Positions 1-59,237 are shown, numbered from the stretch's first letter. The stretch: DNA of 59,237 bases from a virus (IMGVR_UViG_3300036852_000085:1-59237); one strand, 5' to 3'. A program made the numbers and translations. Notes: generated from the letters alone by a model not told the origin.

Positions 1-103
1 GCGCCCGTGTGTCCAGTCTAGCTCAGGGTCCCACGGTGAGCTGAGAGCCCCCGTCCGGCCTGGTCTACATAGGGCGTGAGGGGCTCTCTGTGAGCAGGGG
101 AAA
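1..103. repeat. 103-bp perfect inverted copy of 4360-4462
   Basis: gcgcccgtgtgtccag...gcaggggaaa is the exact reverse complement of 4360-4462; identity breaks at 104/4359. Confidence 0.97.
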
Positions 104-460
104 GCCCCCGTCCGGGGGTCACCCAGACGGGGGCTGCGCCTCATGCGGCCGGGCGACTCACCTCCCGTACGTACCGGGCCCGGGCGTGCCGGAGCGCGGT
201 GCGCAGGAACACGGGGTAGTAGTCCCCCATCCCGGCTGTGGCCAGGATCTGCCAAGCCTCATGCGGCTTCCCGGCCTGGTGTGCGGTCCGGGCCCTGGTC
301 AGGACACGATGCCGCTCAGCTGGCCGGGGGTACTTGATATTGGGCTACTTAGACTCCACTGTGGACACTCCCAACTGCGCCAGCCACGGTGGCTGGCAGC
401 GTGCGCGCACGGGGGTCTGAGCCCTACCCGGCCCGATGGCCGATGCGTGCGCGCCTCTGG

Positions 461-589
461 TCAGCGACGGCGCATGCGCCGCACGGCCAGCCAGAGCAGG
501 AACGCTCCGGCCAGCCCGATGACCAGGGCCGGCCCCCGGGGTAGCCCGTGGGCCGGCTGAGCGGCCAGAATGGCGCTCAGTGCGGCCAT
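461..589 (-). CDS. 42-aa single-TM peptide (MAALSAILAAQPAHGLPRGPALVIGLAGAFLLWLAVRRMRRR)
   Basis: Translated by hand (below ORF-track cutoff); GGGAG RBS, hydrophobic helix followed by a basic tail. Confidence 0.55.
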   Translation of the reverse strand: MAALSAILAAQPAHGLPRGPALVIGLAGAFLLWLAVRRMRRR

Positions 590-705
590 GACTCCCACCC
601 TCCCGCGCCGAAGACGATCACGGTCAGCGCGGTCAAGCCGAGCCAGGCAGTACAGATCAGACCCGGCACGGACCTGAGAGGGCCCGTACGCTTCTCTGAC
701 GTCAT
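577..705 (-). CDS. 42-aa membrane peptide (MTSEKRTGPLRSVPGLICTAWLGLTALTVIVFGAGGWESWPH)
   Basis: Translated by hand; purine-rich upstream sequence, one TM segment, overlaps the next small gene. Confidence 0.5.
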   Translation of the reverse strand: MTSEKRTGPLRSVPGLICTAWLGLTALTVIVFGAGGWESWPH

Positions 706-750
706 ACCCTGCCCATCCTTCCTCCGAGCGTCGTTCGCGCCCGTACGGCT

Positions 751-782
751 CGACCAGGGCCCCCAGATGCGGGCCCTGGTCG
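751..782. terminator. 12-bp GC hairpin downstream of 804..1364
   Basis: cgaccagggccc-N8-gggccctggtcg. Confidence 0.55.
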
Positions 783-803
783 ACCGCTACCGGTACGACT
801 GAC

Positions 804-1364
804 TCAGGCGATCCGGAAGTGCCGCAGCCATGTCACATGTCCATGACTGCACCGGTCCCCCGCGTTGCCTGCCTTCACGGTGCCTGCGATGACACACCCG
901 TCCGTGCACACCAGGGCGTAGTCGCGAACGCCGGTGGTTGCCCACCGGCCGCCCTGGCACATGACGCACGTACACGTCAGCTCAGGCTCTGACGGCTCCT
1001 CGGGGCCATCGCAGCCATTACAGTGATCTTGGTTGCAACCGTCGCACGCCTTTACGCAGTGCTCACAGTCGCACGAGTGGCCGACGCACCCATTGCCGTC
1101 ACCCCCACTGCCGCGACACTCGCCACACTCGCACTCGCACTCATGCCCCGAGCACGAGCCATCGTTGCCGCAACAGCCACACTCACAGGTACATGTGTGC
1201 TGCGGCGCGGGACGCTGGGCTAGCGCCGCGTCCTGGTCGACATGGTCGGCCGGGACCCCGGGGCTGTCAGTGATCGCTCCGATGTAGTCACTTCGAAGCA
1301 TGTAGTTCAGCGACGTGTCGTCTGGCCGATCCGTTGTTGGGGCCGGCCAGTCCTGGACCGTCAT
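804..1364 (-). CDS. Cys-rich metallothionein-like hypothetical protein
   Basis: GGAGGG RBS; CTCECGCC..C..HECECECGEC..C..HSCDCEHC..CDGC..HCNGC cluster plus a C-terminal CTCxxC/CSH region. Confidence 0.75.
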   Translation of the reverse strand: MTVQDWPAPTTDRPDDTSLNYMLRSDYIGAITDSPGVPADHVDQDAALAQRPAPQHTCTCECGCCGNDGSCSGHECECECGECRGSGGDGNGCVGHSCDCEHCVKACDGCNQDHCNGCDGPEEPSEPELTCTCVMCQGGRWATTGVRDYALVCTDGCVIAGTVKAGNAGDRCSHGHVTWLRHFRIA

Positions 1365-1404
1365 GGTCCCTCCATTCTAGACAGTCCTATGTGGACCGTT
1401 CCGG

Positions 1405-1457
1405 GGGTAGGGGAGGTGCCGACCCTCGACCGTCCCATGTGGACGGATCCCCTACCC
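1405..1457 (-). ncRNA. 53-nt D-armless tRNA-like structured element, copy 1
   Basis: 8-bp closing stem, 5-bp stem with 7-nt CACAUGG loop, 4-bp stem with GUCGGCA loop; covaries with copy 2. Confidence 0.6.
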
Positions 1458-1462
1458 GTTGA

Positions 1463-2215
1463 TCAGTTGTTGCGACGACGCTCGCCGTACCGGTTGATCC
1501 CGGCGCGGTTGTACCCGTGGATGTCGAACCCTCGGGTGTTGAACCCGTCCCGGTCGTACCCGTCCCGGTCGTACCCGTGCCGGTCCCGGCGCGTTCCCTC
1601 TTCGCCACGGTCGAACCCGTTCAGGTTGTACCCGTCCGGGTCGTAGCCGTTCGCGTCGTACCCGTTGCGGTCCCGCCCGTCCGGTGCCAGACCAGTCAAC
1701 CGGTCGTACTGCTCACGCGTCCAGCCACGGGCGTCCGTGCCGTTGCGCGACCAGCCATCGGCGTCGACGCCGTCACGGTTGAACCCGTCCGCGTCGTACC
1801 CGTACCGGTTGTACCCTTCCCGGTCGAGCCCCGTGTTGACATGGAACCCTTCGGAGTTGTACCCCTCCGGGCCCACGCCCCGGCAGTCCAGCCCGGCAGC
1901 GTCGCGCCACACGGGTCGGCCCTCACTGTCGGTCACGGTGCCTACCGGCTCGGGACCCTCTGGGTAGAGCCGGTGCAGGACCATTGACAGCTCGGCGCAC
2001 CACCCACGGGCCCGGCCCTCGTTCACGGCCCTGTCCACCACGCGGGCTTTCTGGGCCAGAAGCGCCCCGATCGTCTCATCCGAGACGGTCCGCTCGCCCG
2101 GTGCCCCGATCCACACCCCGCCGATCGCGTCGTGCTCGGTCGTCAGGGAACGCCATGGCTCGGTAGCGGCCGGGATCTCGGTGTCCAGCGTCGCCGTCTT
2201 GCTTTGGTCGGACAT
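1463..2215 (-). CDS. Hypothetical protein with tandem GYDxDG(F/Y)N repeats
   Basis: GAAAGG RBS before MSDQSK (start trimmed from 2353); repetitive C-terminal half. Confidence 0.8.
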   Translation of the reverse strand: MSDQSKTATLDTEIPAATEPWRSLTTEHDAIGGVWIGAPGERTVSDETIGALLAQKARVVDRAVNEGRARGWCAELSMVLHRLYPEGPEPVGTVTDSEGRPVWRDAAGLDCRGVGPEGYNSEGFHVNTGLDREGYNRYGYDADGFNRDGVDADGWSRNGTDARGWTREQYDRLTGLAPDGRDRNGYDANGYDPDGYNLNGFDRGEEGTRRDRHGYDRDGYDRDGFNTRGFDIHGYNRAGINRYGERRRNN

Positions 2216-2369
2216 GATCCAACCTTTCTCCGCCCCGGCACACTCGGCCGGGGGGTCTGCCGGTTCCCCCGGGGGCTCTGAGAGCGTCCGCCCGGGGGTC
2301 CCGTACGCGCCACGGTGGGGGTCTGAGCCCTGAGCGCCCCGTAGGCGCGTCACCGTGGCTGTGCTGCTC

Positions 2370-2777
2370 CTAGCCCTCCTGAGTGGCCATGAACCGCTCA
2401 GTGGCCGCCAAAGCGGCCGCAGTGGCGGCCCTCAGGTCGGCCAGGATCTGCGCGGCATCGGTCGCCGAGCTGTCGGCCGCCGGCTCGGTGGTCGACTGGA
2501 CCAACTCCGCGCTCACCAGGACGAGATCGCGAACCTTGCTGGCCGGCTCGGCACCAAACCGAGCGTCACGCGCCAGACCGGCAACGTGGTTCTCGAGGGT
2601 GTCCGCGCCGTCGTACACGTACGACATCGTGATCACGCTGGTCGCCGTGACCAGCTCGAAGTCCCCGACTCCCGTGTTGAACGCCATGGCCTGGTCGATC
2701 AGGTCCCCGATCAGTCCGCTGTCGTCCAGTTCGGGTGCCGTGTCGATCGAGAACCGCACGGTGAGCTTGTGAGCCAT
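2370..2777 (-). CDS. Hypothetical protein
   Basis: GAGGAG RBS before MAHKLTV; GC3-rich codons. Confidence 0.75.
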   Translation of the reverse strand: MAHKLTVRFSIDTAPELDDSGLIGDLIDQAMAFNTGVGDFELVTATSVITMSYVYDGADTLENHVAGLARDARFGAEPASKVRDLVLVSAELVQSTTEPAADSSATDAAQILADLRAATAAALAATERFMATQEG

Positions 2778-2824
2778 GATCTTTGTCTCCTCTGGCTGTG
2801 CCGGGACCATCCCGGCCGCGCCGC

Positions 2825-2877
2825 GCCACCGTGGGGTGCCGACCCCCGACCGTCCCATGTGGACGGATCACGGTGAC
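2825..2877 (-). ncRNA. 53-nt D-armless tRNA-like structured element, copy 2
   Basis: 35-nt core identical to copy 1 at 34/35 positions; completely different but paired outer stem. Confidence 0.6.
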
Positions 2878-2883
2878 TGCCTG

Positions 2884-3051
2884 TCATGCTTCGATGATCA
2901 CTGAATCGTGACCCGTGGCCGCAAGTTCTCGGCCGGACCGCCATACCTCCCGGATGTCAACATGCCAACCGCGCTCACGGCTGACCGCGAGCATGACTGG
3001 AAGATCCTCGTCAAACTCAGCCAGGATGGCGATCAGCTGACCGACCGTCAT
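2884..3051 (-). CDS. Small phage hypothetical protein (MTVGQLIAILAEFDEDLPV)
   Basis: Common phage MTVxELIxxLxxxDxDLPV-type N-terminus; TGATG coupling to the upstream gene. Confidence 0.7.
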   Translation of the reverse strand: MTVGQLIAILAEFDEDLPVMLAVSRERGWHVDIREVWRSGRELAATGHDSVIIEA

Positions 3052-3356
3052 CACAGCCCCCGGTTGAGACAGGCGATCGAGATCGCACGCTCGGTGTAGC
3101 CCCGGGGGTCGCTCGGTTCCTGGACCAGGCACCGAGCAACCGGGAAGCCGAGGTCATCGACCCCCGACCAGTCCAGGATGATCACCGGGATGGCGCCCCG
3201 GTCGTCCGTGAGGTGCGGCAGACAGGCGTTGCTGGTCACGGCCAGCGCTTCACGCTGAGCCATGACGTCTGCGTTGATCATTTGTAGCCCTCGATCCTCC
3301 GGTCCCATGGCCGGTGGCTCCCAGCCTCCTAGCGACCAGGGGGCTGGGACCGTCAC
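3051..3356 (-). CDS. Hypothetical protein
   Basis: ORF in the co-oriented minus-strand array. Confidence 0.6.
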   Translation of the reverse strand: MTVPAPWSLGGWEPPAMGPEDRGLQMINADVMAQREALAVTSNACLPHLTDDRGAIPVIILDWSGVDDLGFPVARCLVQEPSDPRGYTERAISIACLNRGL

Positions 3357-3366
3357 ACCATGGGCC

Positions 3367-3747
3367 CTACGCCCATCCGAACGGGCGAGCGTTCGGCTCG
3401 TCCGTGCTCACGGGCAGCGCCAGCGTCTGCTCCGGCTGGGCCGGCTCGGTGCCCGCGTAGTCGCTGCTGCGCGGGTCCATCATCAGTGAGTGCCGCTCGA
3501 TCGCGCCAGCGATGTTGCGGAAGCACTCCTGCGCCTGGTCGACGCTGTCGTGCGGGTGGAGCGTGGTCGCGCCGTCCGGGTCGGCAATCGTCACGATCAT
3601 CGTTCCGATACGGCCGGCCATGAGCGGCGCGGGACCGTTGCTGTCCAGCGTGAATCCCGCCACCCATTGGTCCCAGCCGTCCGGCTGGCCGATCCAACGG
3701 GCGTAGTCTGTGCGGGTCATGCCGGCCAGTGCCGCTTTGATGTCCAT
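3367..3747 (-). CDS. Hypothetical protein (MDIKAAL...)
   Basis: GGAG RBS before ATG 3747; start trimmed from 3951. Confidence 0.7.
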   Translation of the reverse strand: MDIKAALAGMTRTDYARWIGQPDGWDQWVAGFTLDSNGPAPLMAGRIGTMIVTIADPDGATTLHPHDSVDQAQECFRNIAGAIERHSLMMDPRSSDYAGTEPAQPEQTLALPVSTDEPNARPFGWA

Positions 3748-4359
3748 TGTGGACACTCCATTTCTCCGGTCTGACGACCGGGCACAGCGCCGGGACCCTG
3801 GGGGGGCCCGGCACCATGCTCGATCAGCGACCCTGAGTGTCCGGGAACGGGTAGCGCCCCGTGGGGTTACCCGTGGTAGGCGTACCGGGCTGGCCCATGT
3901 CCTGGCCAGTCCGGTCCCGGCCGGGGGGCCGGGAGTCGCCTGAGGTGTCACGTGACGTCTTCTTCGCCATCGTGTGGTTCCCTTTCTGGCGTTGGCAGCG
4001 TGCCAGCGTCCGTGACCAGGGATGGAGTCGAACCATCATCCAATCGGGCGCATGCCGCGCCGCCATGTGCGCTCCCGTTGCGCCTGGTCATTGCGTGTCC
4101 ACTGTGGAGTTTTCAAGGTACTGTTTGCCCTGGCCGCGCCTCCGGATCGCCCATCGGGCGCCGCGCCAGGCTATGCTCGGATGTGCGGTGGTTCGATGCG
4201 CCGTAGGCCTTGACTCCCCCGGGCTCTTGCCGTCCCGAGATCCGCGCTGTGCCGTTCGGTGCTCCGCTAGCCTAACCCCCCTCCCCCCTGAAAACCTCAT
4301 ACTTTCGGCTGATTCTTAACCAGCCATTCGGATGATACCGAGACATAGATCATTTACTA

Positions 4360-4462
4360 TTTCCCCTGCTCACAGAGAGCCCCTCACGCCCTATGTAGAC
4401 CAGGCCGGACGGGGGCTCTCAGCTCACCGTGGGACCCTGAGCTAGACTGGACACACGGGCGC
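4360..4462. repeat. Left edge of segment R; inverted copy at 1-103
   Basis: Exact reverse complement of the window start. Confidence 0.97.
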
Positions 4463-4494
4463 TCAGCTCAGCCCAACGCTCAGCTCAGCCCAAC
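4461..4494 (+). repeat. 17-bp tandem duplication gctcagctcagcccaac x2
   Basis: Seen directly, at the point where the inverted copy stops. Confidence 0.85.
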
Positions 4495-4832
4495 CGGATA
4501 CCCCCCCCTCCCCCATTCGGCCAAGGCCTCAGTCTGTCCAGATAGGACAGTACACATAGGACACATAGAGATCCTTGATCATGAAGCCCAGCCCGACCCG
4601 AGCCCCCCTGTCCCCCTCACGTGCTGCGCCAGCCCAGACCTGAGCCCCCAACGCTCAACCCTGGGCCAGCCAAGAGGGAAATGATCATGGATCAGTTGTC
4701 CTGGCCTGCAAAGCCCAGCCTAACTTCTGACTACACCATAATCCCATGGCTCTTCTTCGATGTCTTGGATCGAGGGGTCTGGGTTGGCTGGGCCTGACGG
4801 GTGTCCTTGCCTCCATGGACTTATAAACATTG

Positions 4833-4893
4833 ATGTGCATCTTGATATGCATCTTTAAACCATGTGCATCTTCGACCTGGAAACATGTGCATC
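4833..4893 (+). promoter_or_regulatory. Four ATRTGCATC boxes upstream of the terS-like gene
   Basis: Copies at 4833, 4845, 4862 and 4885 in an AT-rich patch. Confidence 0.65.
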
Positions 4894-5256
4894 ATGACCG
4901 AGGTCGTGATCAACGGGATCACCGAGGAACAGATCAGCCAGGACGCACCTCGGATGAGGGCCCTGCTGGCCATGAGGTACGAGAAGATCTGGCAGACCTG
5001 CGAGCCGCACATCAACGGTGACCGTCAAGCCAAAGGACTGGGCAGCGATCCTCGCTTCATCGAGGCGGGGATCAGAGTGCTCAGGGATCTTGGGCGGCTG
5101 TACAAGCTGGACCGTCCCAGCCCTGGGGAACTGGTGCAGGCTACCGGGGTGGACGTGGCGGCGCTGGTGTCCACGCGCCTGGCTGAGCTGGAGGCTCGGA
5201 TGAGCCAGGCTGATCCTGGCCCGGGGGAGGCTGGGGAGCAGGAGACTCGTAGCTGA
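4894..5256 (+). CDS. Putative terminase small subunit-like helical protein
   Basis: DPRFIEAGIRVLRDLGRLYKLDRP resembles the C-terminal helical motif of actinophage TerS proteins; no TerS candidate lies beside terL. Confidence 0.45.
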   Translation: MTEVVINGITEEQISQDAPRMRALLAMRYEKIWQTCEPHINGDRQAKGLGSDPRFIEAGIRVLRDLGRLYKLDRPSPGELVQATGVDVAALVSTRLAELEARMSQADPGPGEAGEQETRS

Positions 5257-5527
5257 TCGGCACCCAGGTACGAGTTGCGCTGTCCAGAGTGAAGGCCTGG
5301 AGCAGCAGCACACCGGTCTTCTTGTTGAACTTCGTGCGTAGCCGGTCCTGGCCCAGGCTGAAGCGGCGCAGGGTCCGGTAGGCGCGTTGCCTGAAGGTGG
5401 CGACGTCCTCGTGGAAGTCCTGGCCGAGGGTCAGTTCCCACAGGTGGCCGTTGAGCCAGTCGACCCACGGGTAGTCGAAGTCTTCATCTCGGACAATTCG
5501 GTCGCGTGGACCGCGAGAGGTCGCCAT
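5141..5527 (-). CDS. Hypothetical protein (YPWxxWLxGxxWEL family-like)
   Basis: TACACT -10 hexamer 8 nt upstream of ATG 5527; the 3' end overlaps the convergent gene. Confidence 0.65.
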   Translation of the reverse strand: MATSRGPRDRIVRDEDFDYPWVDWLNGHLWELTLGQDFHEDVATFRQRAYRTLRRFSLGQDRLRTKFNKKTGVLLLQAFTLDSATRTWVPISYESPAPQPPPGQDQPGSSEPPAQPGAWTPAPPRPPR

Positions 5528-5552
5528 GGCCGCCGAGTGTAGCAGTAGTTCC

Positions 5553-5767
5553 GTAGAACCGTAAAACCGTAGAACCAATCTAGCCAAGATCAACTAAGAA
5601 AGCCCAGGTCAAGAGCTAGAGTTTTTTCGGTTTTATGAGACTGGTCAGAATCGGAAAGGGTAGGTAGTTAAAAGGGGTTGTCCGATTTGCCCTGGTCTGT
5701 GCTCGGGCCTCAGATTCTGTGGCCGCTACTTTCCTTTCGGGAGAATCTCATAAAACCGAAGAAACAA
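5553..5767. other. AT-enriched non-coding region, candidate origin or packaging site
   Basis: gtagaacc/gtaaaacc short repeats; 15-bp inverted repeat ttcggttttatgaga (5626-5640) / tctcataaaaccgaa (5746-5760). Confidence 0.4.
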
Positions 5768-5885
5768 TTTAGTGGGTGAAATGTCCCTGAATGTTCCCCT
5801 GGGGATCCTGGAGTCCTTAGCTTACTTCCAGGGGGAGGGGTATGGGAGTATAGTGGGGGGATGAAGACTGTGAGTGTGAGCTGGG
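5768..5885. repeat. Right edge of segment R; 118-bp inverted copy at 59120-59237
   Basis: Exact reverse complement of the window end. Confidence 0.97.
5826..5860 (+). promoter_or_regulatory. Leaderless sigma-A-type promoter with CCAGGGGGAGGGGTA box
   Basis: TTCCAG-N17-TATAGT-N6-ATG(5861); no SD sequence. Confidence 0.65.
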
Positions 5886-6454
5886 ACCTGGACCTTGTCG
5901 AAGAGATGGCCAAGGCCATCCGGGAGGCCCGGTTCCCTGGACATGGGACGACCTGGGAAGACACGCCCGCTAGGGCCCGGGGCTCGTATCTACGAGAGGC
6001 CGAAGCAGTGCTCAACGTCCTTGCCCAGGCCAAGGTCAAAGAAGAGGAGGCCCAAGCGAAGCAGTCTCTGCTTACTGAAGATCAGTTAGCTGAGCTGCTC
6101 CATAACGCCTATAAGCAGTACTACGGCTCAGTTCTGCCGCTATGGAAAGACCTGTCAGGATCAACAAAGGGTTCATACGTGGCAATGGCTAAGGCCATCC
6201 TGGTCGCCGGCCAGGAGCCGGCCACCGTTTCCGCAGCAGCAGTAACGACTATCCGTCAGGTAGGTCCTAACCTGCCTGACGGAATCCAGGAATGGATGTG
6301 GGTTGGCATAGGCGAGAATGCCAGGGCATTCTTGCTTTCCTCCGAGACGGCCGCTGAGACGTTCCTCCGCGAAAACGTGAATCGTCAGATTTTCAAGGTT
6401 CGCATCGTCGAGGCTCGACGGCACCACATAGCTCTCATCCCCAGCGATGAATAG
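5861..6454 (+). CDS. Hypothetical protein with an internally duplicated helical motif
   Basis: Two E-[ML]A..[IL].....W.D......SY...A.A[VI]L units. Confidence 0.8.
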   Translation: MKTVSVSWDLDLVEEMAKAIREARFPGHGTTWEDTPARARGSYLREAEAVLNVLAQAKVKEEEAQAKQSLLTEDQLAELLHNAYKQYYGSVLPLWKDLSGSTKGSYVAMAKAILVAGQEPATVSAAAVTTIRQVGPNLPDGIQEWMWVGIGENARAFLLSSETAAETFLRENVNRQIFKVRIVEARRHHIALIPSDE

Positions 6455-6752
6455 GACCCTGCCGTTACTGATGTTGGGGCTAGTCCTGGCCGGGCTACTG
6501 CTTATCGGCTCAGGGTTCAGTGGCGGCAGCCTGTCCACGCAGGTCAGGGCTACTGGCGTCAACATCGAGGTGACCTGGGACAACGGGAACTTCCTGAAGA
6601 CCCGGGACAGCTTCTATGCCGACGACGGGCACATCGCAGCAGTGCGGGTCTGGGGAGGCAACGCCTGCTGGATCACTATCAACGACCGTGTGGCTGACGC
6701 CAGAGAAGACGCGGGGGCGGTCACCTGTACCTGGAGTAGGGAGCAGACATGA
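6447..6752 (+). CDS. Secreted or membrane-anchored hypothetical protein
   Basis: N-terminal hydrophobic helix and a Cys pair. Confidence 0.75.
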   Translation: MNRTLPLLMLGLVLAGLLLIGSGFSGGSLSTQVRATGVNIEVTWDNGNFLKTRDSFYADDGHIAAVRVWGGNACWITINDRVADAREDAGAVTCTWSREQT

Positions 6753-7162
6753 GAGTGCTGGTGACAGGCTCACGTGACTGGGATGTCCGATACAAGATCA
6801 ACATGATTCTCAACGAACTGAAGGCCATGGCCGACATACTCAACTCTCAGCTGACCATCGTCCATGGAGCTTGCCCTACCGGGGCCGACTTCTACGCAGA
6901 CCAGTGGGCCAACTACCGTTCCGACGTTAAGGCCGAGCAGTGGCCAGCCAGGTGGGAGCTGTACGGGAAGGCGGCCGGTCCTCGCCGCAATGAAGCCATG
7001 GTCGACGCTGGCGCGGACATGTGCCTGGCGTTCCTGAGGGGCAATTCGCCGGGTACCAGTCAGACGATTGCTCTGGCCAGGACGGCGGGGATCCCCACAT
7101 TCGTGATCAACTACGAGAGCGTGGACCAGGAGATCGAAACCCTGAGTCCAGGCCCAGGTTAA
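6749..7162 (+). CDS. SLOG-superfamily protein (DUF2493/YspA-like)
   Basis: RVLVTGSRDW, IVHGACPTGAD, GKAAGPRRN and SPGT motifs. Confidence 0.88.
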   Translation: MRVLVTGSRDWDVRYKINMILNELKAMADILNSQLTIVHGACPTGADFYADQWANYRSDVKAEQWPARWELYGKAAGPRRNEAMVDAGADMCLAFLRGNSPGTSQTIALARTAGIPTFVINYESVDQEIETLSPGPG

Positions 7163-7172
7163 GGAGAAAGTT

Positions 7173-7376
7173 ATGCCCGAGCCCACAGGTCTTGGCACTC
7201 CCGACAGCGACGAATTCGGCGAAGTTCACTTCAAGTACCACGGCAGCGAAGACCCCAAGCCTGTCAGCTGGCCGGCGGCCACGATGGCATCTGTCGTCGT
7301 GATCTCCGTGATCACTGGCGTGGTCCTGGTGTGTTCGACCTGCGCGGGACTATTCAGCCAATGGACTATGAAATGA
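7173..7376 (+). CDS. Small membrane protein
   Basis: AAGGAG RBS; C-terminal TM helix. Confidence 0.7.
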   Translation: MPEPTGLGTPDSDEFGEVHFKYHGSEDPKPVSWPAATMASVVVISVITGVVLVCSTCAGLFSQWTMK

Positions 7377-8017
7377 CCGAGTATCAGAAGATTCCAGCCC
7401 CGTTCAAGCGACACGTTGAGGGTCCGAACCGCAACAAGCTGATCATCGGCGAGTGGAGCAGTCCTGAACTGGCGGCCCTGAAGAACATCAACTGGATCTG
7501 GACCGAGAAGGTTGACGGCACGAACATCAGGGTTATCTGGGATGGCCACAAGGTCCGGTTCGGTGGTCGCACTGACGCTGCGCAGATCCCAGCCAAGCTG
7601 ATCTCCGTACTTCAGGAGAAGTTCCCTGAGGAGTTACTGGAGGAGGCTTTTGGAGCCACGCCCGCAGTCCTCTACGGGGAGGGTTACGGAGCTGGGATTC
7701 AGTCCGGTGGTGTCTACCGGTCAGACATGAGCTTCGTTCTGTTCGACGTCAAGATCGACTCATGGTGGCTGCTACGGGCCAACGTGGAAGACATCGCGGT
7801 GGCCAAGCTGGGCATTGACGTGGTCCCCATCCTCTGGGTTGGCACGATCGAGGACGCGATTGCCCAAGTCCAAGCTGGTCTACAGTCTGCCTGGCGGCCG
7901 GCAACTCGACCCGAGCAAACTTGGGCCGAAGGCCTGGTTGGCGTGACCCAGGCCGGTCTGCTGGATCGTGGCGGAAACCGTATCATCGTGAAGATCAAGA
8001 CGAAGGATTTCCGGTGA
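7373..8017 (+). CDS. ATP-dependent RNA ligase (Rnl2-like nucleotidyltransferase)
   Basis: Motif I EKVDGTN, III LYGEGYG, IIIa FVLFDV, IV EGLVG, V KIK; ATGA overlap gives start 7373. Confidence 0.88.
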   Translation: MTEYQKIPAPFKRHVEGPNRNKLIIGEWSSPELAALKNINWIWTEKVDGTNIRVIWDGHKVRFGGRTDAAQIPAKLISVLQEKFPEELLEEAFGATPAVLYGEGYGAGIQSGGVYRSDMSFVLFDVKIDSWWLLRANVEDIAVAKLGIDVVPILWVGTIEDAIAQVQAGLQSAWRPATRPEQTWAEGLVGVTQAGLLDRGGNRIIVKIKTKDFR

Positions 8018-10696: not shown

Positions 10697-10995
10697 TCGT
10701 TTACGTGAGCATTGGCAACAGCGATAACAAGCTGACTCAAAAGGAGTGGGCTGACTTCATCGCAGATGTTGAAGACGACATTCAAGGTTCAATAGCTAGT
10801 ATTCATGAATCTTGGCTCTCTGCTTCTGATGTACCTTGGCAGAACGCCTGCTGGTGTATCGAGCTGGATGAGACTGCCTTCAATTTCAAGATCCAGGTGC
10901 AGCGACTGAAGGGAAACCTGCGCTCGCATGCTCAGGCTTACAGGCAAGATTCGATTGCTTGGGCTGAGGTCAAGGAAACAGAGTTCCTCGGATGA
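10693..10995 (+). CDS. Actinophage hypothetical protein
   Basis: VYVSIGNSDNKLTQxEW...PWQNACW...YRQDSIAW. Confidence 0.8.
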   Translation: MIVYVSIGNSDNKLTQKEWADFIADVEDDIQGSIASIHESWLSASDVPWQNACWCIELDETAFNFKIQVQRLKGNLRSHAQAYRQDSIAWAEVKETEFLG

Positions 10996-11756
10996 TCATC
11001 ACCGTCTACGGTGATCCTGCGCCCCAGGGGTCCAAGCGAGCCCTGGGGCGTAGCCCTGCCGGCAAATCCATCATGGTCGAGAACTCCACCAAGGTCATTC
11101 CTTGGCGTAATGACGTCAAGAACGCCGCCGAGCGGGCCGTTGCGGCTCTGGGCATGCCACCACCCATGGACGGCCCCCTGCTGGCCAGGATGGTGTTCAC
11201 CTATCCGAGGCCGAAGAGCCATTTCGGTACTGGGAAGAACTCGGACCGGCTTCGCCCGGATGCTCCGGAGCGTCCCTGCACCGTGCCCGACCTGTCTAAG
11301 CTGGTGCGCTCCACCGAGGATGCGATCAAGGGCCTGGTCTGGGTTGACGATGCCCGGGTAAGCGAGTACAGCCGGGTGGCCAAGGTCTGGGTCAACGAGG
11401 ATATCGAGGCTCTGGACCGTCGAGGAGTCATCATCACCGTGGTCCCTATCGGTCGGCGCGACGACAACGGCAGTGAGATCCATGTTCTGGAGTCTGGTCA
11501 GACGCTGGTGACGCACAGCCTGGCGAACTGTCGACGTAACCCATGGTGTGTCATCCATGTGCCCCGTCCGGGGCCATGGGAGTCCTGGCCGAGACTGTGG
11601 CGCGACGATCGGATGATGATCGAGCGCGTGTGTCCGCACGGAGTGGGGCATCCAGCCGTGGAGCAGATCGAGTGGTTCCAGGAACACCCAGAACGGCATT
11701 CTCTTGATCACGGGTGCGACCTGTGTCCTTGCATGCCCAGGGAGTTAGGTAGATGA
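10992..11756 (+). CDS. rusA: RusA-like Holliday junction resolvase fused to a Cys/His-rich domain
   Basis: GDPAPQGSK, F.YPRPKSH and PDLSKLVRSTEDAI..VWVDDARV motifs; C-terminal CVIH..ERVCPHGVGHP..HGCDLC. Confidence 0.82.
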   Translation: MIITVYGDPAPQGSKRALGRSPAGKSIMVENSTKVIPWRNDVKNAAERAVAALGMPPPMDGPLLARMVFTYPRPKSHFGTGKNSDRLRPDAPERPCTVPDLSKLVRSTEDAIKGLVWVDDARVSEYSRVAKVWVNEDIEALDRRGVIITVVPIGRRDDNGSEIHVLESGQTLVTHSLANCRRNPWCVIHVPRPGPWESWPRLWRDDRMMIERVCPHGVGHPAVEQIEWFQEHPERHSLDHGCDLCPCMPRELGR

Positions 11757-47088: not shown

Positions 47089-47478
47089 ATGTATCCACAT
47101 GCTGACCTGGGCCAGGAGGTCGTTGACGATGGGCGCCTAAAAGATCTTCGGATGACGCTCAAGTGGTCGCTCAACGCCATGGCCGAAGTTCTTCACACAT
47201 CTCCACAGACCTACTCAACCTGGGAGCGCAGACGTGACCAGATCAAGCTGTGGCCAGCTTCGGCCAACCGCGTTGGTCAGTTCTACGTCCAGGCTCGCCA
47301 GCTCATGGGCCAGCTGGCCGACGAGGGAATTGATCTAGGAGATCTGATTCCCTTCCATGTGGCAGCCAGCCAGCTGGGGCTGCCACAAGAGGTGCTCCTG
47401 GAGCGCCACCGCAACGGTGAACTGAACGCTGAGGATCTTGGCATCCTTGGCCTCTGGATTCGGAAAGAGGACCTGTGA
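47089..47478 (+). CDS. XRE-like HTH DNA-binding protein
   Basis: LKDLR....WSLNAMAEVLHTSPQTYSTWE; leaderless TACCCT-N7-ATG. Confidence 0.8.
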   Translation: MYPHADLGQEVVDDGRLKDLRMTLKWSLNAMAEVLHTSPQTYSTWERRRDQIKLWPASANRVGQFYVQARQLMGQLADEGIDLGDLIPFHVAASQLGLPQEVLLERHRNGELNAEDLGILGLWIRKEDL

Positions 47479-48311
47479 ACTGTCTCGGCTGCGGAACAGT
47501 ACTTGATCGAAGGTTGGTCGAGCTGGGAGAGAAGATCCATCCCAGCTGCATGGCCTTCCTTCCTCAGGGGATTGATCCACTCGCCGAGACACTCAAGACT
47601 GAACTCACCAAGATCATCGTGTGGGCTGACAGCAACAGTCCACGCTCCCTGCAACTGGAGCCCGGCCCCTCGGAGCTGGGCTCCCCGTGTGACCGGCAAC
47701 TGGCCTACCGGTTGATGGGCACCCCGGACGTCAATGTTCACTGGGACCGCTGGCCAGCCATCGTCGGTAGTGCCATCCACGTCCGCCTGGACGAGAACAT
47801 CCAGCGTTGGGTGGCTGAAACCGGGGACACCCGCTGGCGGCCCGAGGTCAAGGTCAGCGTGGATGAGTTCCTGCACGGACATTCTGATGTGTACCGGGAC
47901 GGCGTGGTCATTGACCACAAGACGGCCAGTGACGACATCATGCGCAAGGTCCGTGAAGACCTGGTCAAGTACAAGCCCGGGTATGTCGTCCAGGTCATGT
48001 TGTACGGCTTGGGATACCAGAACCAGGGTTTACCGGTGACCGACGTTGCGCTAGCCTTCTACCCCAGGGGTGGGAGGCTGCGTGATATGTATGTCTGGAC
48101 GGCCCCGTACGACCGCACCATCGCCGAAGCTGCCCTGACCCGCATGTACGACATCGCAGCCACGGCACTGAACTTGGACCTGCTGGACAACCCGCACCGC
48201 TTCGAACAGATCCCCGCCACGCCGACCAACGACTGCGGGTTCTGTCCCTGGTATGACCCGAACAAGCAACTCGACACGAGCGCGGACAACTTCGGTTGCC
48301 CGGGAAGGTGA
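47475..48311 (+). CDS. Cas4-like PD-(D/E)xK exonuclease
   Basis: GPSELG.PCDR, G.AIH, GHSD, VIDHKT, QVMLYG and CGFCPW. Confidence 0.88.
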   Translation: MNCLGCGTVLDRRLVELGEKIHPSCMAFLPQGIDPLAETLKTELTKIIVWADSNSPRSLQLEPGPSELGSPCDRQLAYRLMGTPDVNVHWDRWPAIVGSAIHVRLDENIQRWVAETGDTRWRPEVKVSVDEFLHGHSDVYRDGVVIDHKTASDDIMRKVREDLVKYKPGYVVQVMLYGLGYQNQGLPVTDVALAFYPRGGRLRDMYVWTAPYDRTIAEAALTRMYDIAATALNLDLLDNPHRFEQIPATPTNDCGFCPWYDPNKQLDTSADNFGCPGR

Positions 48312-50206: not shown

Positions 50207-52675
50207 GTGAGCCTAGTTTTGGAAGCCGCCCTGGCCTGGCACAACGCTGGCGTATCCACCGTCCCGATCCTGCCCAACGGCACCAAGCGCCCTGCCGTCC
50301 AGTGGGGCGTCTACCAGGCCAAGGCCCCCGAGCTGGGCCAGGTGGATCTGTGGTGGCGCAACGGCAGCGAGTACGGCCTGGCCCTGATCTGCGGCTCCGT
50401 TTCCGGCAACCTGGAGATGCTGGAACTGGAGGGCCGGGTCACCGACGGGGCCAGCATGACCAGGTTGATGACCGTCCTGGATGCCCAGGGTCAGCGGGAG
50501 CTATGGGATCTGCTCTCCGGCCCGGACGGGTACGCGGAATGGTCACCCTCGGGTGGTATGCACCTGCTGTACCGCATCACTGACCACCCAGTGCCCGGCA
50601 ATGCCAAGGTCGCAGCTGGGCCAGACAACGTGGTGTACGCCGAAACCCGAGGTGAGGGTGGCTACGTCATCGTGGCCCCCACCGGCGGGCTGTGTCACCC
50701 ATCAGGCCAGGCGTGGATCAGGACCCGGGGTGCTTACGGGGTACTTCCGGAGATCACCTGGTCCCAGCGGTGCGCACTACACGAAGCGATCAAGCTAGCC
50801 TTGGATGAGCGCCCCCAGTTACCGGCCCCATCGTTGAGCAAAGCCTCCCCCGTAGGACGCTCCGATGGGGCCGGCCTCTCTCCGGGTGACGATTTCGAGG
50901 CTCATTCAGACTGGGCGCAGATCCTGGAGCCCCACGGCTGGGTGCTGGAGTCCCAGCGCGGACCCGAGCGGTTCTGGACCCGGCCAGGGAAGAACCCCCG
51001 CGATGGTGCCTCGGCCACAACAGGTGGTGCGGCCGACCGCGACAGATTGTACGTTTTCAGCACATCGACGATCTTCGATGCCGAGGTTCCCTATACCAAG
51101 TTCGGGGCCTACGCCCTACTCAACTTCGGCGGAAACCACAGCGAGGCTGCCTCAGCTCTGGTGCGCTTCGGCTACGGCAGCCGGACCCTGGACCCCGGCC
51201 TGCCCTACATCGAGTCCGAGCCCGGTAATCCACAGCAGGTCGAGCCGGCTTCGGTGTATGCACCGGGCCCGGTCAAGTCGAGGCCCAGATTCCGTCTGGA
51301 CGAGGCAGGGAATGCCGAACGACTCTGGGACCGAACGGAAGGCCGGTTCCACTACGTGGCGGAGCAGAAGAGCTGGTACACCTGGTCTGGAAGTGTGTGG
51401 AAGCATGATGTTGACGGTAGCCTGACCCGCGAGGTCACGGCCATGACCGAAGCCATGTTCACCGAGGCCGAACTGCTCGACAATACCGATCTTGCCAAAT
51501 GGGCCAAAAACAGTCGATCCCTGAATCGGATCAACGCCACCAAAACGCTGATGCAGGCCCAGCTCGGCGCCACGATCAGTACCAATCAGCTGGACCAAGA
51601 CCGGCACCTGGTCAACCTGGACAATGGAATCCTGGATCTGGCCACAGGGGAGCTGGAGCCGCACGACCCGAGCAAGCTGATCACCAGGATGTTCGGCACC
51701 AGGTTCGACCCGCAGGCCGCGTGCCCGAACTTCGAGAAGTTCATGGAAGACGTCCTGCCGGATCCCCAGGTTCGGGCATATGTCCAACGGTGCCTGGGTT
51801 ACACCCTGTTGGGTGACGCCGACCAGCGATCCCTGTTCCTGGTACACGGTCCTTCAGGTACCGGCAAGAGTCAGTTCATCGAGACGATCCGCTACCTGTT
51901 CGGTGGGTACGGGACCACCGCGCCGGCCGGGACCTTCAAGCACGCCAAGGCTGACGGCCCCAACAATGATCTTCACATGCTGCGGGGCAAGCGGTTCGTG
52001 GCCACCTCGGAAACGGCCGACAACGCGGTCTTCGATGAGGACCTGATCAAGCGGATCACGGGCCGGGACGAGATGTCCTCGCGCGGACTGTATGAGCAGT
52101 TCCAGAGCTGGACCCCGGAGTGCGCGGTGTGGATCGCCACCAACCACCCACCGAAGTTCAATTCTGACGACGATGCGATCTGGCGCCGGGCCAAGCTGGT
52201 GCCGTTCACCACCCAGTTCTCTTCAGATGGCGAACATAAGGAAATTCCGGATATTGCTCGCAACGTCCTTCGCCACGAGTTGCCGGGCATCCTGAACTGG
52301 GTGCTGGCCGGACTGGCTTCCTACCGTCAGCTCGGACTTGCTGAGCCGGACAGCGTGCTGGCCACGGCCAAGGAACACCGGGCCCAGTCGGATCAGGTGG
52401 TCCGGTTCCTCGAAGATTGCATCGAGGACGGGCGCCTGGTGCTGGGTGAGGACCAGGACATCCACGCCAACGAGCTGATGTCGATGTATGACACCTGGTG
52501 TCGGGCGGCCAGTGAACGCAAGATGGGCAGCTTCCGCTTCGCCAACAGGCTGACCTCTGCTGGCCGAGGTCTGGTGACCCAGAATCACCGCTGGTACGGG
52601 GTTGGTCGGGCTACCGGAGTCTCAGTTTTAGGGACAATGGTGCCATTTCACCGCGATAAAAAAGATCTTGAGTGA
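50207..52675 (+). CDS. Bifunctional primase-polymerase / D5-like SF3 helicase
   Basis: Prim-pol motifs (SPSGGMH, ETRGEGGYV); D5_N region; Walker A GPSGTGKS; IK.ITG.D, TNH.P and AIWRR. Confidence 0.93.
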   Translation: MSLVLEAALAWHNAGVSTVPILPNGTKRPAVQWGVYQAKAPELGQVDLWWRNGSEYGLALICGSVSGNLEMLELEGRVTDGASMTRLMTVLDAQGQRELWDLLSGPDGYAEWSPSGGMHLLYRITDHPVPGNAKVAAGPDNVVYAETRGEGGYVIVAPTGGLCHPSGQAWIRTRGAYGVLPEITWSQRCALHEAIKLALDERPQLPAPSLSKASPVGRSDGAGLSPGDDFEAHSDWAQILEPHGWVLESQRGPERFWTRPGKNPRDGASATTGGAADRDRLYVFSTSTIFDAEVPYTKFGAYALLNFGGNHSEAASALVRFGYGSRTLDPGLPYIESEPGNPQQVEPASVYAPGPVKSRPRFRLDEAGNAERLWDRTEGRFHYVAEQKSWYTWSGSVWKHDVDGSLTREVTAMTEAMFTEAELLDNTDLAKWAKNSRSLNRINATKTLMQAQLGATISTNQLDQDRHLVNLDNGILDLATGELEPHDPSKLITRMFGTRFDPQAACPNFEKFMEDVLPDPQVRAYVQRCLGYTLLGDADQRSLFLVHGPSGTGKSQFIETIRYLFGGYGTTAPAGTFKHAKADGPNNDLHMLRGKRFVATSETADNAVFDEDLIKRITGRDEMSSRGLYEQFQSWTPECAVWIATNHPPKFNSDDDAIWRRAKLVPFTTQFSSDGEHKEIPDIARNVLRHELPGILNWVLAGLASYRQLGLAEPDSVLATAKEHRAQSDQVVRFLEDCIEDGRLVLGEDQDIHANELMSMYDTWCRAASERKMGSFRFANRLTSAGRGLVTQNHRWYGVGRATGVSVLGTMVPFHRDKKDLE

Positions 52676-54362: not shown

Positions 54363-54402
54363 ACGAAGAACCCCCCGTCCGATTGGGCGGGGGGTTCTTC
54401 GT
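54363..54402. terminator. Bidirectional terminator
   Basis: acgaagaaccccccgtcc-gatt-gggcggggggttcttcgt between convergent genes. Confidence 0.85.
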
Positions 54403-54409
54403 GCCTGCA

Positions 54410-55069: not shown

Positions 55070-55142
55070 CGCTTCCTCCTCAGGAAGTAGTAAAAGGGAT
55101 TAGTGTGCTGATTGGTGATCTCATGATCACCTGCACTATGCC

Positions 55143-55196
55143 ACTGTATCCCAGGGGGAGGGGTGGGTGCAAGTGTCAAGGGATAGTATCTGAATC
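55143..55196. promoter_or_regulatory. Divergent promoters with a CCCCTCCCCCTGGG box
   Basis: Minus strand: TTGCAC-N18-TACAGT; plus strand: TAGTAT-N7-ATG(55197). Confidence 0.7.
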
Positions 55197-56917: not shown

Positions 56918-56950
56918 CCTGGACCTGCCTGGTTCTGACTGACCTTCCAT

Positions 56951-56988
56951 AACGAAGCCCCCCAGATCACTCTGGGGGGCTTCGTTTT
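56951..56988. terminator. Bidirectional terminator
   Basis: aacgaagccccccaga-tcac-tctggggggcttcgtttt. Confidence 0.85.
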
Positions 56989-57043
56989 ACAGATCGCGAC
57001 GGCTCCGGTTTACAGATCGCGCAGAGGTCTATCGGCCTCCAGG

Positions 57044-57613: not shown

Positions 57614-57640
57614 CCTCATCTCCTCGCTTACCATCTCAGT

Positions 57641-57853
57641 ATGAGCGGTGCGGACTGGATCGGGATCATCGCGGCCATCGGTACGGCTGCGACCGCCGTT
57701 ATCGCAGCCTATGGTGCAATTCAGGGTAAACGTACCCATACTCTGGTCAACAGCCGTACCGACGCCATGCTGGCCCGACAAGCTCAGCTGGAAGCCGCTA
57801 TGCGTCGAGGGGGCGTGGATGTGCCGCCTGATCCCTCGCTAAGGCCTTCCTGA
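57641..57853 (+). CDS. Small single-TM coiled-coil protein
   Basis: Leaderless TACCAT-N6-ATG; TM helix followed by THTLVNSR. Confidence 0.72.
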   Translation: MSGADWIGIIAAIGTAATAVIAAYGAIQGKRTHTLVNSRTDAMLARQAQLEAAMRRGGVDVPPDPSLRPS

Positions 57854-57868
57854 TGACCTTGTAACACG

Positions 57869-58033
57869 TCATCGCCTACACCCCCTCTTCAGTTGCAGCA
57901 TGGCAAACATCAAGCTCAGCTCCTGGGCCATGTCCGCATAGAGTAACTTCAGCCGCAAGGCTTCGAAGTAGTCAGCTCGCCGGGCTCGCACGTCTTCCCA
58001 GCGACTGTGTTCGCCCCCATAACGGGGATTCAT
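57869..58033 (-). CDS. 54-aa hypothetical protein
   Basis: GGAGG RBS; ATGA overlap with the upstream microprotein. Confidence 0.6.
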   Translation of the reverse strand: MNPRYGGEHSRWEDVRARRADYFEALRLKLLYADMAQELSLMFAMLQLKRGCRR

Positions 58034-58182
58034 TTTGTGGGCCTCCGTGGTGGCGGTAAGCAGCCGACGTGACATCCATTGGTACGAGCATGTCCCATGC
58101 AGTGCCTTTTACGTTTCGCCGTGCAACCGTTGCACTGGCAGTTGCAGCTCCCTACGCTGTAGCACGGGGGGAAGGTAACCAT
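58030..58182 (-). CDS. Cys/His-rich microprotein 3 (50 aa)
   Basis: Translated by hand: MVTFPPCYSVGSCNCQCNGCTAKRKRHCMGHARTNGCHVGCLPPPRRPTK. Confidence 0.82.
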   Translation of the reverse strand: MVTFPPCYSVGSCNCQCNGCTAKRKRHCMGHARTNGCHVGCLPPPRRPTK

Positions 58183-58347
58183 TTAACCCTTCTTCTTTTT
58201 CGTGAAGACCGGAGGTATCTGCTTCTTGGGAACCGGGGTACATGAGATATGACACTCATTGCCATGCGAATAGCAGTCTGTACTATCGGCGTTACATCTC
58301 GCGCAATTACAGTAACAGCGCCCCGAATCCCTGCAATTTGCCGCCAT
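58183..58347 (-). CDS. Cys/His-rich microprotein 2 (54 aa)
   Basis: Translated by hand: MAANCRDSGRCYCNCARCNADSTDCYSHGNECHISCTPVPKKQIPPVFTKKKKG. Confidence 0.85.
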   Translation of the reverse strand: MAANCRDSGRCYCNCARCNADSTDCYSHGNECHISCTPVPKKQIPPVFTKKKKG

Positions 58348-58350
58348 TTT

Positions 58351-58512
58351 CTACCGCCTTCTCTTTGGAGGAGGCGGTAGTGCTCGCTTCTTCGGTGGCG
58401 CGGAACAGCTCAAGCAGCAGGCGTTGTTGTGATTACGGCAATGCGCGCTGCCACTGTTGCATCGAGGACATGAGCACATACAGAAGCCGGCATGTGGGCA
58501 GTTACTGGCCAT
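58351..58512 (-). CDS. Cys/His-rich microprotein 1 (53 aa)
   Basis: Translated by hand: MASNCPHAGFCMCSCPRCNSGSAHCRNHNNACCLSCSAPPKKRALPPPPKRRR; AAGGAG RBS. Confidence 0.85.
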   Translation of the reverse strand: MASNCPHAGFCMCSCPRCNSGSAHCRNHNNACCLSCSAPPKKRALPPPPKRRR

Positions 58513-58669
58513 CACTCTCCTTGATCAACCCTTCCGGGTCTTCTTCACGTACCCAGAACTCATTCAGGTTTCGCCACAACACCAGAGGCCAGCCACAGTG
58601 AGCACATTCGCCCACTATCTGACCCTTACTGCGGGAATCGTTTACAAGACGTACCAGCTCATTGGTCAA
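58502..58669 (-). CDS. 55-aa hypothetical protein with CAHCG
   Basis: Translated by hand from a TTG start with AAGGAGG RBS: MTNELVRLV...GECAHCGWPL. Confidence 0.65.
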   Translation of the reverse strand: MTNELVRLVNDSRSKGQIVGECAHCGWPLVLWRNLNEFWVREEDPEGLIKESDGQ

Positions 58670-59144
58670 GATGTCCCTCCTTCAGTTCCATCAACTTCTG
58701 CTCTACGTCGATTTGTCTGGAAAGCACGACTGCGGCCCTGATCTGGGTCAGCTGAAGAAGAGCCTCAGCGAACTCCTCGCTGCCCTCGATCTCGGCACCC
58801 TCGACGCCATCGGTGATCGGGCAGTCCTTATGGTCCAGTTCGTGGTGATACAGGGTGACCAGGACGTAGCAGTCCGGACGCCCCGGTACGTTCGGGTGGC
58901 AGAGGGGTTCACCGTTGAGTGACCCCCAGCCACTCTCGGCGTCTCCGCAAGGACGGCCGCAGTGTGCACAGGCAGGTAGAGGCATACGGACACTCCTAAA
59001 TGTGGGAGTAATCGGGCATTTCTTCGCGTGAAGGAACTCGGCGTCGGCCAGGATCTTCAACATCTTGGCCAGCGACCTAATCCTCCGGTACGGCCTGGTG
59101 GTCAGGGCACACCCATCAGCCCAGCTCACACTCACAGTCTTCAT
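58659..59144 (-). CDS. Zn-binding hypothetical protein; starts at 59144 (shared MKTVSVSW) or 58985
   Basis: CAHCG..LCHP...PDCY..VT motif; AGGAG RBS before MPLPAC at 58985. Confidence 0.7.
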   Translation of the reverse strand: MKTVSVSWADGCALTTRPYRRIRSLAKMLKILADAEFLHAKKCPITPTFRSVRMPLPACAHCGRPCGDAESGWGSLNGEPLCHPNVPGRPDCYVLVTLYHHELDHKDCPITDGVEGAEIEGSEEFAEALLQLTQIRAAVVLSRQIDVEQKLMELKEGHLDQ

Positions 59145-59237
59145 CCCCCCACTATACTCCCATACCCCTCCCCCTGGAAGTAAGCTAAGGACTCCAGGAT
59201 CCCCAGGGGAACATTCAGGGACATTTCACCCACTAAA
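59120..59237. repeat. 118-bp perfect inverted copy of 5768-5885
   Basis: Exact reverse complement, including the promoter and first 8 codons. Confidence 0.97.

Follow-up and report, generated by a model that had tools for sequence, protein, structure and literature searches.

Contig ends that fold back onto the two edges of a 1.5-kb segment recur in a family of related soil phages

Several genomes have been described in which unique segments are inverted between repeats. Genomes of the herpes simplex type (class E) possess invertible L and S components and occur as four isomers; herpesviruses contain kilobase-long repeats, which appear at twofold depth, and a terminal direct 'a' sequence. Plastid genomes and the 2-micron plasmid consist of two unique segments that are parted by an inverted repeat and form flip-flop isomers. 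Here we analyze IMGVR_UViG_3300036852_000085, a viral contig of 59,237 nucleotides (in the following, the window, meaning the whole stretch), whose two ends are inverted copies of the two edges of one internal segment. This segment of 1.5 kb, designated hub R, lies between a small arm A and a large arm B. Among phages, the G segment of Mu and the C segment of P1 are single internal segments of 3 kb, which are inverted by a serine invertase and serve as a tail-fibre switch (bioRxiv 10.64898/2026.10.21.760668). The published layout that gives the same assembly graph as the window is that of the Burkholderia jumbo phage Matilda, as presented in the same preprint. The genome of Matilda is linear and has a dumbbell graph, in which two terminal segments, each within its own inverted-repeat pair, join the rest in both orientations; BcepSaruman and BcepSauron are reportedly alike (bioRxiv 10.64898/2026.10.21.760668). 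The core of 220 kb contains the essential genes, the loops comprise 1.3 and 25 kb, and the repeats 1.5 and 18 kb. The evidence for this layout consists of coverage peaks, polymerase chain reaction, pulsed-field gel electrophoresis and PacBio reads, and the authors call theirs the first description (bioRxiv 10.64898/2026.10.21.760668). In a search of the full-text literature, with most subscription journals outside its scope, this preprint was the sole paper found on a dumbbell or bidirectional phage genome, and no paper on the phage lineage studied here was found.

The window corresponds to one IMG/VR record, which is assigned to the IMG/VR class 'linear' and has a CheckV completeness of 91%. 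It represents the almost complete genome of a tailed soil phage that has not been cultured. Its parts are as follows.

1-103: IRa', inverted copy of the left edge of R at the contig end; the length is a minimum determined by the assembly
104-4359, minus strand: arm A, 4.3 kb with 68% G+C, containing genes without known function
4360-5885: hub R, 1526 bp, a discrete unbranched contig with a depth of 18.2 in the k=31 assembly of run X1
4360-4462: IRa, internal copy at the left edge of R
5768-5885, plus strand: IRb, internal copy at the right edge of R
5886-59119: arm B, 53.2 kb, containing all recognisable phage functions
59120-59237: IRb', inverted copy of the right edge of R at the contig end; its length is likewise a lower bound

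The whole window was scanned for inverted repeats with a seed of 12 and a minimum length of 30 nt. Positions 1-103 and 4360-4462 are 100% complementary over 103 nt, and positions 5768-5885 and 59120-59237 are 100% complementary over 118 nt. Only three other inverted pairs of at least 30 nt were detected, with lengths of 31-45 nt and 71-78% complementarity; the two exact pairs exceed chance expectation by far. IRa and IRb each pair solely with their own copy, and identity breaks off sharply at 103/104, 4359/4360, 5885/5886 and 59119/59120. Just beyond the repeats, no similarity was found on the B side (z 0.3), and on the A side there is just one 16-nt site (15 of 16 positions matching), which is offset by 249 nt on both sides (z 2.7). 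This mirror-image site is located at 353-368 and 4095-4110, each copy 249 nt from the repeat boundary of A, and belongs to a GTCC-N5-GGAC-type motif that an initial annotation of the window had listed in A.

The Logan contigs provided an independent assembly (k=31) of the sequencing runs. Run X1 is the probable source of the window; run X2 stems from another sample and another study. In X1, A, R and B are found on separate contigs. The R contig comprises positions 4360-5885 exactly, with no extra letters, and the A contig (74-4389, depth 13.3) consists of A plus 30 nt of R-edge sequence at either end. One B contig begins at 5856; a second opens with 5856-5885 and proceeds into the reverse complement of the window ending at 59119. 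No other continuation exists from any arm end or from the interior of R. The graph is that of a dumbbell, in which the loops A and B are joined both ways to one unbranched R contig. The initial annotation had read both contig ends as exact reverse complements of internal segments, with A joined at either end to the left edge of R and B at either end to the right edge, and had expected the four junctions to be spanned. The repeat scan and the graph bear this out, and all four junctions are present in the k=31 contigs of X1. In X2, a single contig runs from the reverse complement of 322-104 directly into 4360-5885; the other end of A (4078-4359) is uncovered.

In order to assess recurrence, ten related IMG/VR contigs (G001-G010) were compared, either whole or at their ends. 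Altogether, 16 fold-backs occur in 13 related contigs from other samples. On the A side, their length is 103 nt in the window, 111 nt in G001, 69 nt in G005, 113 nt in G006, 86 nt in G008, 107 nt in L080 and 126 nt in L107; G002 contributes a fold-back of 30 nt with one mismatch. On the B side, the lengths are 118 nt in the window, 96 nt in G001, 34 nt in G002, 115 nt in G004, 121 nt in G005, 69 nt in G007, 111 nt in G009 and 112 nt in G010. G003 has no fold-back. The R segments bounded by paired fold-backs measure 1172-1526 bp. The layout therefore recurs in a family of related soil-phage contigs, and it is unusual for a tailed phage. Fold-back tails on phage contig ends are known, and one might suspect chimeric fold-back reads or a misassembly at natural DNA ends. 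Since the fold-backs recur in relatives, they are no random chimera; moreover, the two edges of one segment are the targets of both ends, 12 other contigs from other samples show this too, and an independent k=31 assembly of two runs arrives at the same exact boundaries. Such an artefact is therefore very improbable.

The relatives also differ in the orientation of the two arms, which was determined with the help of three markers.

4864-5256, plus strand: the conserved R gene, which codes for a small helical protein of about 110-130 aa and is the single conserved gene of R
45467-46903, minus strand: TerL, T4-type large terminase of 478 aa, located in arm B
141-344, minus strand: coding-like block, the best conserved part of A (50-59% identity by tblastx in all six relatives compared)

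R is joined to B over 28-57 kb in 11 contigs of different samples and assemblies, seven of which also join A. The R gene and TerL occupy different strands in four of the 11 (the window, G002, G004 and G008) and on the same strand in the remaining seven (G001, G003, G005, G006, G007, G009 and G010). G002 and G005, the closest pair with 41 kb aligned at 74% identity, have opposite B arrangements; the arrangement of B does therefore not track relatedness. The 141-344 block is located at the far end of A in the window, G001, G002, G004, G005 and G006. In G008 it adjoins R and is inverted, which means that A is flipped in one of seven contigs. The flip-flop isomers postulated in the initial annotation are thus represented by both orientations of B (4 versus 7) and of A (6 versus 1).

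The lengths of the fold-backs are informative with respect to the assembly. G008 and L107 have an identical A-side sequence and yet possess fold-backs of 86 and 126 nt, respectively. G012 and G013, two relatives identified by TerL (loci L145-L148), consist of B only, lack the R gene, and carry inverted terminal repeats of exactly 127 nt. All fold-backs fall into the range of 30-127 nt, and none is longer than 127 nt; 127 is the largest k commonly used by SPAdes. The lengths are lower bounds that result from k and from chance breaks of the junction k-mer chains. In this respect they behave like repeat-induced contig ends of de Bruijn assemblies, that is, as k-mer overlaps or broken chains. In contrast, such contig ends leave unexplained that 13 contigs have both ends directed at the edges of a single internal segment. 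The lengths of 103 and 118 nt were also considered as positions of physical ends; this was rejected, because the pair G008 and L107 shows two different lengths, 86 and 126 nt, for one sequence. A comparison of the inner fold-back boundaries yielded no conserved terminal motif. The break points of 76 whole metagenome contigs around the R gene showed a soft excess at 300-700 nt, which is not decisive. G012 and G013 are assigned a CheckV completeness of 100% and the IMG/VR class of inverted terminal repeats. Their completeness is doubtful because the repeats equal a 127-nt k-mer overlap and the R gene is missing. Among 82 loci, no R contig belonging to either of them was found. Both probably lack an A-R module of approximately 6-7 kb, and the label 'complete with inverted terminal repeats' is in this lineage probably an assembly by-product.

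The mean word depth per contig in X1 was 18.2 for R, 17.3 (26.5 kb) and 15.9 (13.8 kb) for B, and 13.3 for A. Compared to a length-weighted mean of 16.5 for A and B together, R stands at 1.10x, a value to which about 230 reads give a sampling error of roughly 7%; two full copies predict approximately 33. A composition bias is unlikely because R and B are nearly equal in G+C (59% and 61%, compared to 68% in A). The initial annotation had proposed a complete second R at about 2x coverage and a circle of about 60.5 kb resembling a plastid genome or the 2-micron plasmid, and had named a depth of 1x over the interior of R as the finding that would speak against it. The contig-mean depths of X1 come close to the latter value (X2, about 1.65x), the record is classed as linear, and the window contains no match to an FLP-type recombinase. 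The complete second copy, the circle and the plastid-like layout are not supported by these data. That only one R-gene match was present in each of five whole records, and that inverted repeats of at least 50 nt other than the fold-backs were absent from 82 loci, is weak evidence, because short reads could not assemble a second R.

The reading that we tentatively favour, without regarding it as established, is a linear genome with two invertible arms, each of them enclosed by its own short inverted-repeat pair, of which one copy lies at an edge of hub R. The order of the molecule would be IRa'-A-IRa-core-IRb-B-IRb', with truncated copies at or near the physical ends. As the depth places the interior of R near one copy, short and truncated second copies are assumed; these would be inverted R edges of at least 103 and 118 nt in the window and of at least 126-127 nt in relatives. 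R is unbranched and the arm ends enter only its edges. In the simplest interpretation, the second copies thus come to a stop inside R without running into other sequence, which would make them free DNA ends. Each arm could then invert by homologous recombination between its own repeat pair. Genes for recombination are present (a Cas4-like exonuclease and RusA), and neither a site-specific recombinase nor a protein-primed polymerase was found: the six frames of the window gave no match to Resolvase (PF00239) or Phage_integrase (PF00589), and DNA_pol_B_2 had no match in the window either. The PF00239 search matched 13 of 14 control genomes.

Several points weigh against this linear layout. The free DNA ends are deduced from contigs alone, and the lengths of the fold-backs are technical, as is evident from the pair with 86 and 126 nt and from the exact 127 nt of G012 and G013. 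The contig depth is one mean per contig, which by the tool's warning is no copy number. In X2, at low coverage, the R-bearing contig has a depth of 8.7, compared to about 5.2 for A (bins) and 5-7 for B. The resulting ratio of 1.5-1.7 (about 1.65) is closer to two full R copies. In both runs the depth of A is below that of B, for which the 68% G+C of A is the putative cause. Finally, contigs that span A-R-B do not discriminate, because at low coverage the junction k-mer chains are estimated to break by chance.

The ratio in X2 keeps an alternative in play, namely an A-R-B-R' circle or concatemer of about 60.5 kb, which contains two full inverted copies of R and isomerises like a plastid genome or the 2-micron plasmid. 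This alternative fits the topology of the graph exactly and accounts for arms in both orientations. Furthermore, B-only contigs with 127-nt inverted terminal repeats imply a repeat of at least k, and short-read assemblers never show the second copy of an exact 1.5-kb repeat. It is nevertheless less likely than the linear layout with short repeats, and on the whole unlikely, albeit deserving of serious weight: R at 18.2 lies next to B at 15.9-17.3 instead of at about 33, the similar G+C content of R and B makes a bias an unlikely cause, the IMG/VR class is linear, and no FLP-like or invertase-like recombinase was found in the window. The two depth ratios of 1.10x and about 1.65x could be reconciled if two forms existed, an intracellular replicative one with two full R copies and a packaged linear one in which the second R is trimmed to its edges; the ratio would then follow the share of each form. 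The possible small-terminase gene and the cluster of repeated sites in R (see below) would suit such trimming. As this scheme is purely inferential and the small-terminase assignment is weak, it is poorly favoured and ranks below the circle.

One may also ask whether second copies are needed at all. R could be present once, and assemblers might have linked, through shared edge sequences, a mixture of linear isomers or of distinct molecules such as an A-R element alongside a B genome. The depth of R (about 1x in X1), the B-only contigs with inverted terminal repeats that CheckV regards as complete, and the deviating G+C content of A are in line with this idea. However, an inversion of arms without repeats has no mechanism, 11 contigs join R to B and seven of these also A, and in one and the same contig R-edge sequence borders A as well as B on either side. 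A single-copy R is therefore improbable, more so than the existence of two forms.

A comparison with the known systems further delimits the linear layout with short repeats. Like the herpes class E genomes, it is linear with two arms that have internal and terminal inverted copies, the internal ones lying side by side at a central joint, and four isomers are possible. In contrast to these, neither kilobase repeats at 2x nor an 'a' sequence are seen here, and a unique core of 1.3 kb parts the internal copies. With plastid genomes and the 2-micron plasmid, the window shares the two unique segments parted by an inverted repeat and the flip-flop isomers, both orientations having been found. These systems need two full copies (2x) and a circle, whereas the contig means of X1 give 1.1x for R; in addition, the 2-micron plasmid needs the FLP recombinase, and no tyrosine or serine recombinase was found here. 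In the Mu G and P1 C systems, as described in the preprint, phage DNA between inverted repeats is likewise found in both orientations. In the window, however, both arms are affected, i.e. everything outside the 1.5-kb hub, and a match to a Gin/Cin-type invertase (PF00239) was not found.

The closest likeness is to Matilda (bioRxiv 10.64898/2026.10.21.760668). The two layouts share the dumbbell graph, two mutually unrelated inverted-repeat pairs, segments that are joined both ways, and assembler-sized overlaps of 127 bp (here in the relatives G012 and G013); a dedicated invertase is described for neither. They differ in that the stick measures only 1.5 kb here and contains one small conserved gene, and in that the loops of 4.3 and 53 kb make up 97% of the genome. 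Moreover, the repeats appear short, the layout is known from contigs alone whereas that of Matilda was shown physically, and the phages are unrelated, no cultured phage exceeding 39% TerL identity. With respect to the 2x depth that is confined to the repeats in Matilda, the mean of 1.10x for R in X1 fits short repeats and the 1.65x in X2 fits poorly, both values being contig means. The essential genes of Matilda lie in the core and its accessory genes in the terminal segments; here TerL, portal, primase-helicase and every other recognisable function lie in loop B, so that the loops contain all essential genes, and the window is therefore regarded as a variant of the Matilda layout rather than a member. 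If the layout proposed here is true, isomerising inverted-repeat genomes exist beyond one jumbo-phage group, in unrelated, common soil phages of about 60 kb, and in an extreme form with nearly the whole genome inside invertible arms. It would also raise the questions how such a genome is replicated, cut and packaged, and why both ends of B possess a copy of a promoter and a start codon.

The hub itself contains the following features in addition to the conserved gene.

4833-4897, plus strand: cluster of four ATGTGCATC-type sites where the R gene begins, three of them exact; exact copies occur nowhere else in the window
5141-5593, minus strand: doubtful ORF (open reading frame) of 150 aa, on the strand opposite to the R gene and not conserved
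5861-6454, plus strand: first gene of B at the R side, starts with MKTVSVSW
58659-59144, minus strand: last gene of B, starts with MKTVSVSW

Relatives of the R gene were found at seven loci of IMG/VR with the single protein and at nine loci with an alignment; a metagenome search yielded 106 stretches, of which the best 80 were kept. The protein is 42-52% identical to its relatives over the alignment; its gene is found in synteny, and its divergence keeps pace with that of the phages. No match was found in GenBank phages, and neither the ORF 4864-5256 nor the ORF 5141-5593 belongs to a Pfam or PHROGs family, transposases included. For the latter ORF, there is no relative in IMG/VR and no tblastn match in five relatives of the phage. 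The initial annotation had called the R gene terS-like. The model of the protein is helical (pLDDT 75.8), and an Atlas feature match to the T5_Terminase_small cluster (score 0.90, rank 12) is a weak lead in this direction, as are BFVD Foldseek matches named small terminase with E-values of 0.4-2. A structure search against the PDB gave nothing. Furthermore, the R gene is not located beside TerL; the distance is about 40 kb here and about 12 kb in the flipped arrangement. The R protein is possibly a small terminase or another DNA-binding protein. The terS-like designation thus has weak leads in the Atlas and Foldseek matches and none in Pfam, PHROGs or PDB.

With at most one mismatch, 13 ATGTGCATC-type sites occur in the whole window, compared to 14.2 expected. 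As this count is not above chance, the signal lies in the clustering of the sites. This cluster is the candidate for the origin-like region that the initial annotation had placed in R. Further into R, three CCGTAGAACC-type units stand in tandem at 5551-5576. Positions 5621-5640 and 5746-5765 constitute a 20-nt inverted repeat (95% complementary) whose arms are 105 nt apart; the second arm stops 3 nt short of the inner limit observed for the 118-nt repeat.

The right edge of R contains TATAGT (5849-5854), GGGGGG, the ATG at 5861 and the first 25 nt of the downstream ORF. By eye, a -10-like hexamer and, behind a spacer of 6-7 nt rich in G, a start codon were recognized in eight of ten relatives inspected: in G001, G002, G004, G005, G007, G010 and G013, and probably, with a GTG, in G012; G009 is unclear. 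In the relatives examined, the repeat boundary lies between a few and 25 nt past the start codon. The genes at both ends of B (5861-6454 and 58659-59144) point away from R, as the initial annotation had noted. Their first eight codons (MKTVSVSW) are identical because the repeat extends 25 nt into each of them; otherwise they are unrelated. The right edge may therefore represent a leaderless-type promoter that is duplicated at both ends of B. According to the linear layout with short repeats, the -10-like element and start codon of IRb would drive the gene at whichever end of B adjoins a copy, and 58659-59144 would be driven from the terminal IRb copy. A scan of 1-6500 for consensus promoters and terminators gave nothing above shuffled sequences and hence no sigma-70 support. 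Of the strong promoter that the initial annotation had placed in R, the conserved -10-like element at the right edge remains, and the consensus scan stays at chance.

The contents of the hub allow for a more far-reaching reading of the ends, which we consider quite unlikely, though less so than the two-form scheme. In a widespread lineage of soil tailed phages, the 1.5-kb hub would be the sole fixed part of a linear genome around which both arms invert, the 53-kb arm with every structural and replication gene included, and the hub edges would template the terminal copies in each round of replication or packaging. The hub would provide a putative DNA-binding (terS-like) gene, repeated sites and outward promoters for this purpose, and the templating might proceed by end invasion, panhandle pairing or trimming of a second hub. 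If true, the copies would stay identical, and ends would be replicated without direct terminal redundancy, cos ends, hairpins or terminal proteins.

It was further considered whether R is an insertion sequence or transposon in two copies, which would make A the cargo of a composite transposon. R has the size of an insertion sequence, A deviates in G+C, and a low-threshold scan of R shows an imperfect 11-nt inverted match (91%) between 4364-4374 and 5875-5885, the sole match between IRa and IRb, located at their outer tips. However, this match is one of 37 such pairs in 1.65 kb, and neither ORF of R matches a Pfam or PHROGs family, be it of transposases or of other proteins. In addition, synteny and a divergence parallel to that of the phages are observed for the R gene, and the right boundary always lies a few codons into the flanking genes. 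This makes a transposon the least probable of all explanations considered.

In a third soil run, X3 (0.08 of words), a relative of R with about 95% identity (4781-5794) was observed together with 162 nt of A. At this level, X3 contains almost nothing of A or of 5886-7000 of B. R seems to be better conserved, or more often exchanged, than its flanks.

Arm A contains two further features of note in addition to the 141-344 block.

104-135: G+C-rich hairpin with a terminator-like stem, just inside the A/IRa' junction
1463-2353, minus strand: repeat protein of 296 aa, common to the window and two relatives

RNAfold of 101-140 gave -29.2 kcal/mol, and the hairpin may have a terminator-like function. 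The 141-344 block has no ATG, GTG or TTG before position 230, and no canonical start spans the whole block; an unusual start, a frameshift or an assembly error are possible. None of ten proteins from A, R and the edges reached the Pfam cut-off or had a convincing PHROGs match.

The recognisable phage genes are all located in arm B, which also contains two ParB-like genes. Apart from TerL, these are the following.

7331-8017, plus strand: RNA ligase
10992-11756, plus strand: RusA resolvase
42015-42743, minus strand: MuF-like protein
42730-44646, minus strand: portal
47475-48311, plus strand: Cas4-like PD-(D/E)XK exonuclease
50207-52675, plus strand: PrimPol/D5-type primase-helicase

The best TerL identity among GenBank phages is 39%, and a nucleotide search of 3800-6500 against GenBank phages gave no match. 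An exact-pattern scan of IMG/VR with the start of A retrieved no other assembly of this phage, and a search of GTDB genomes with the R protein revealed no host and no prophage form. One GTDB match in a Chloroflexota metagenome-assembled genome (32% identity, E 3e-5) was rejected as spurious because a 625-aa ORF occupies the opposite strand at this place.

Among the first genes of arm B, 6749-7162 (plus strand) codes for a YspA/SLOG-family protein (PF10686, E 1.9e-12), which is kept in G001 and G003 with 50-59% identity. In the head module, 34132-39429 (minus strand) codes for a protein of 1765 aa with DNA-binding repeats of the Rho_N/HeH type (Pfam E 6.6e-11), and adjoins the gene of an 876-aa protein with DUF6582. 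In two relatives (G007:42347-44584 and G009:45321-47609), TerL is split into two matching pieces within one frame of 757-834 aa, which suggests an intein or another in-frame insertion.

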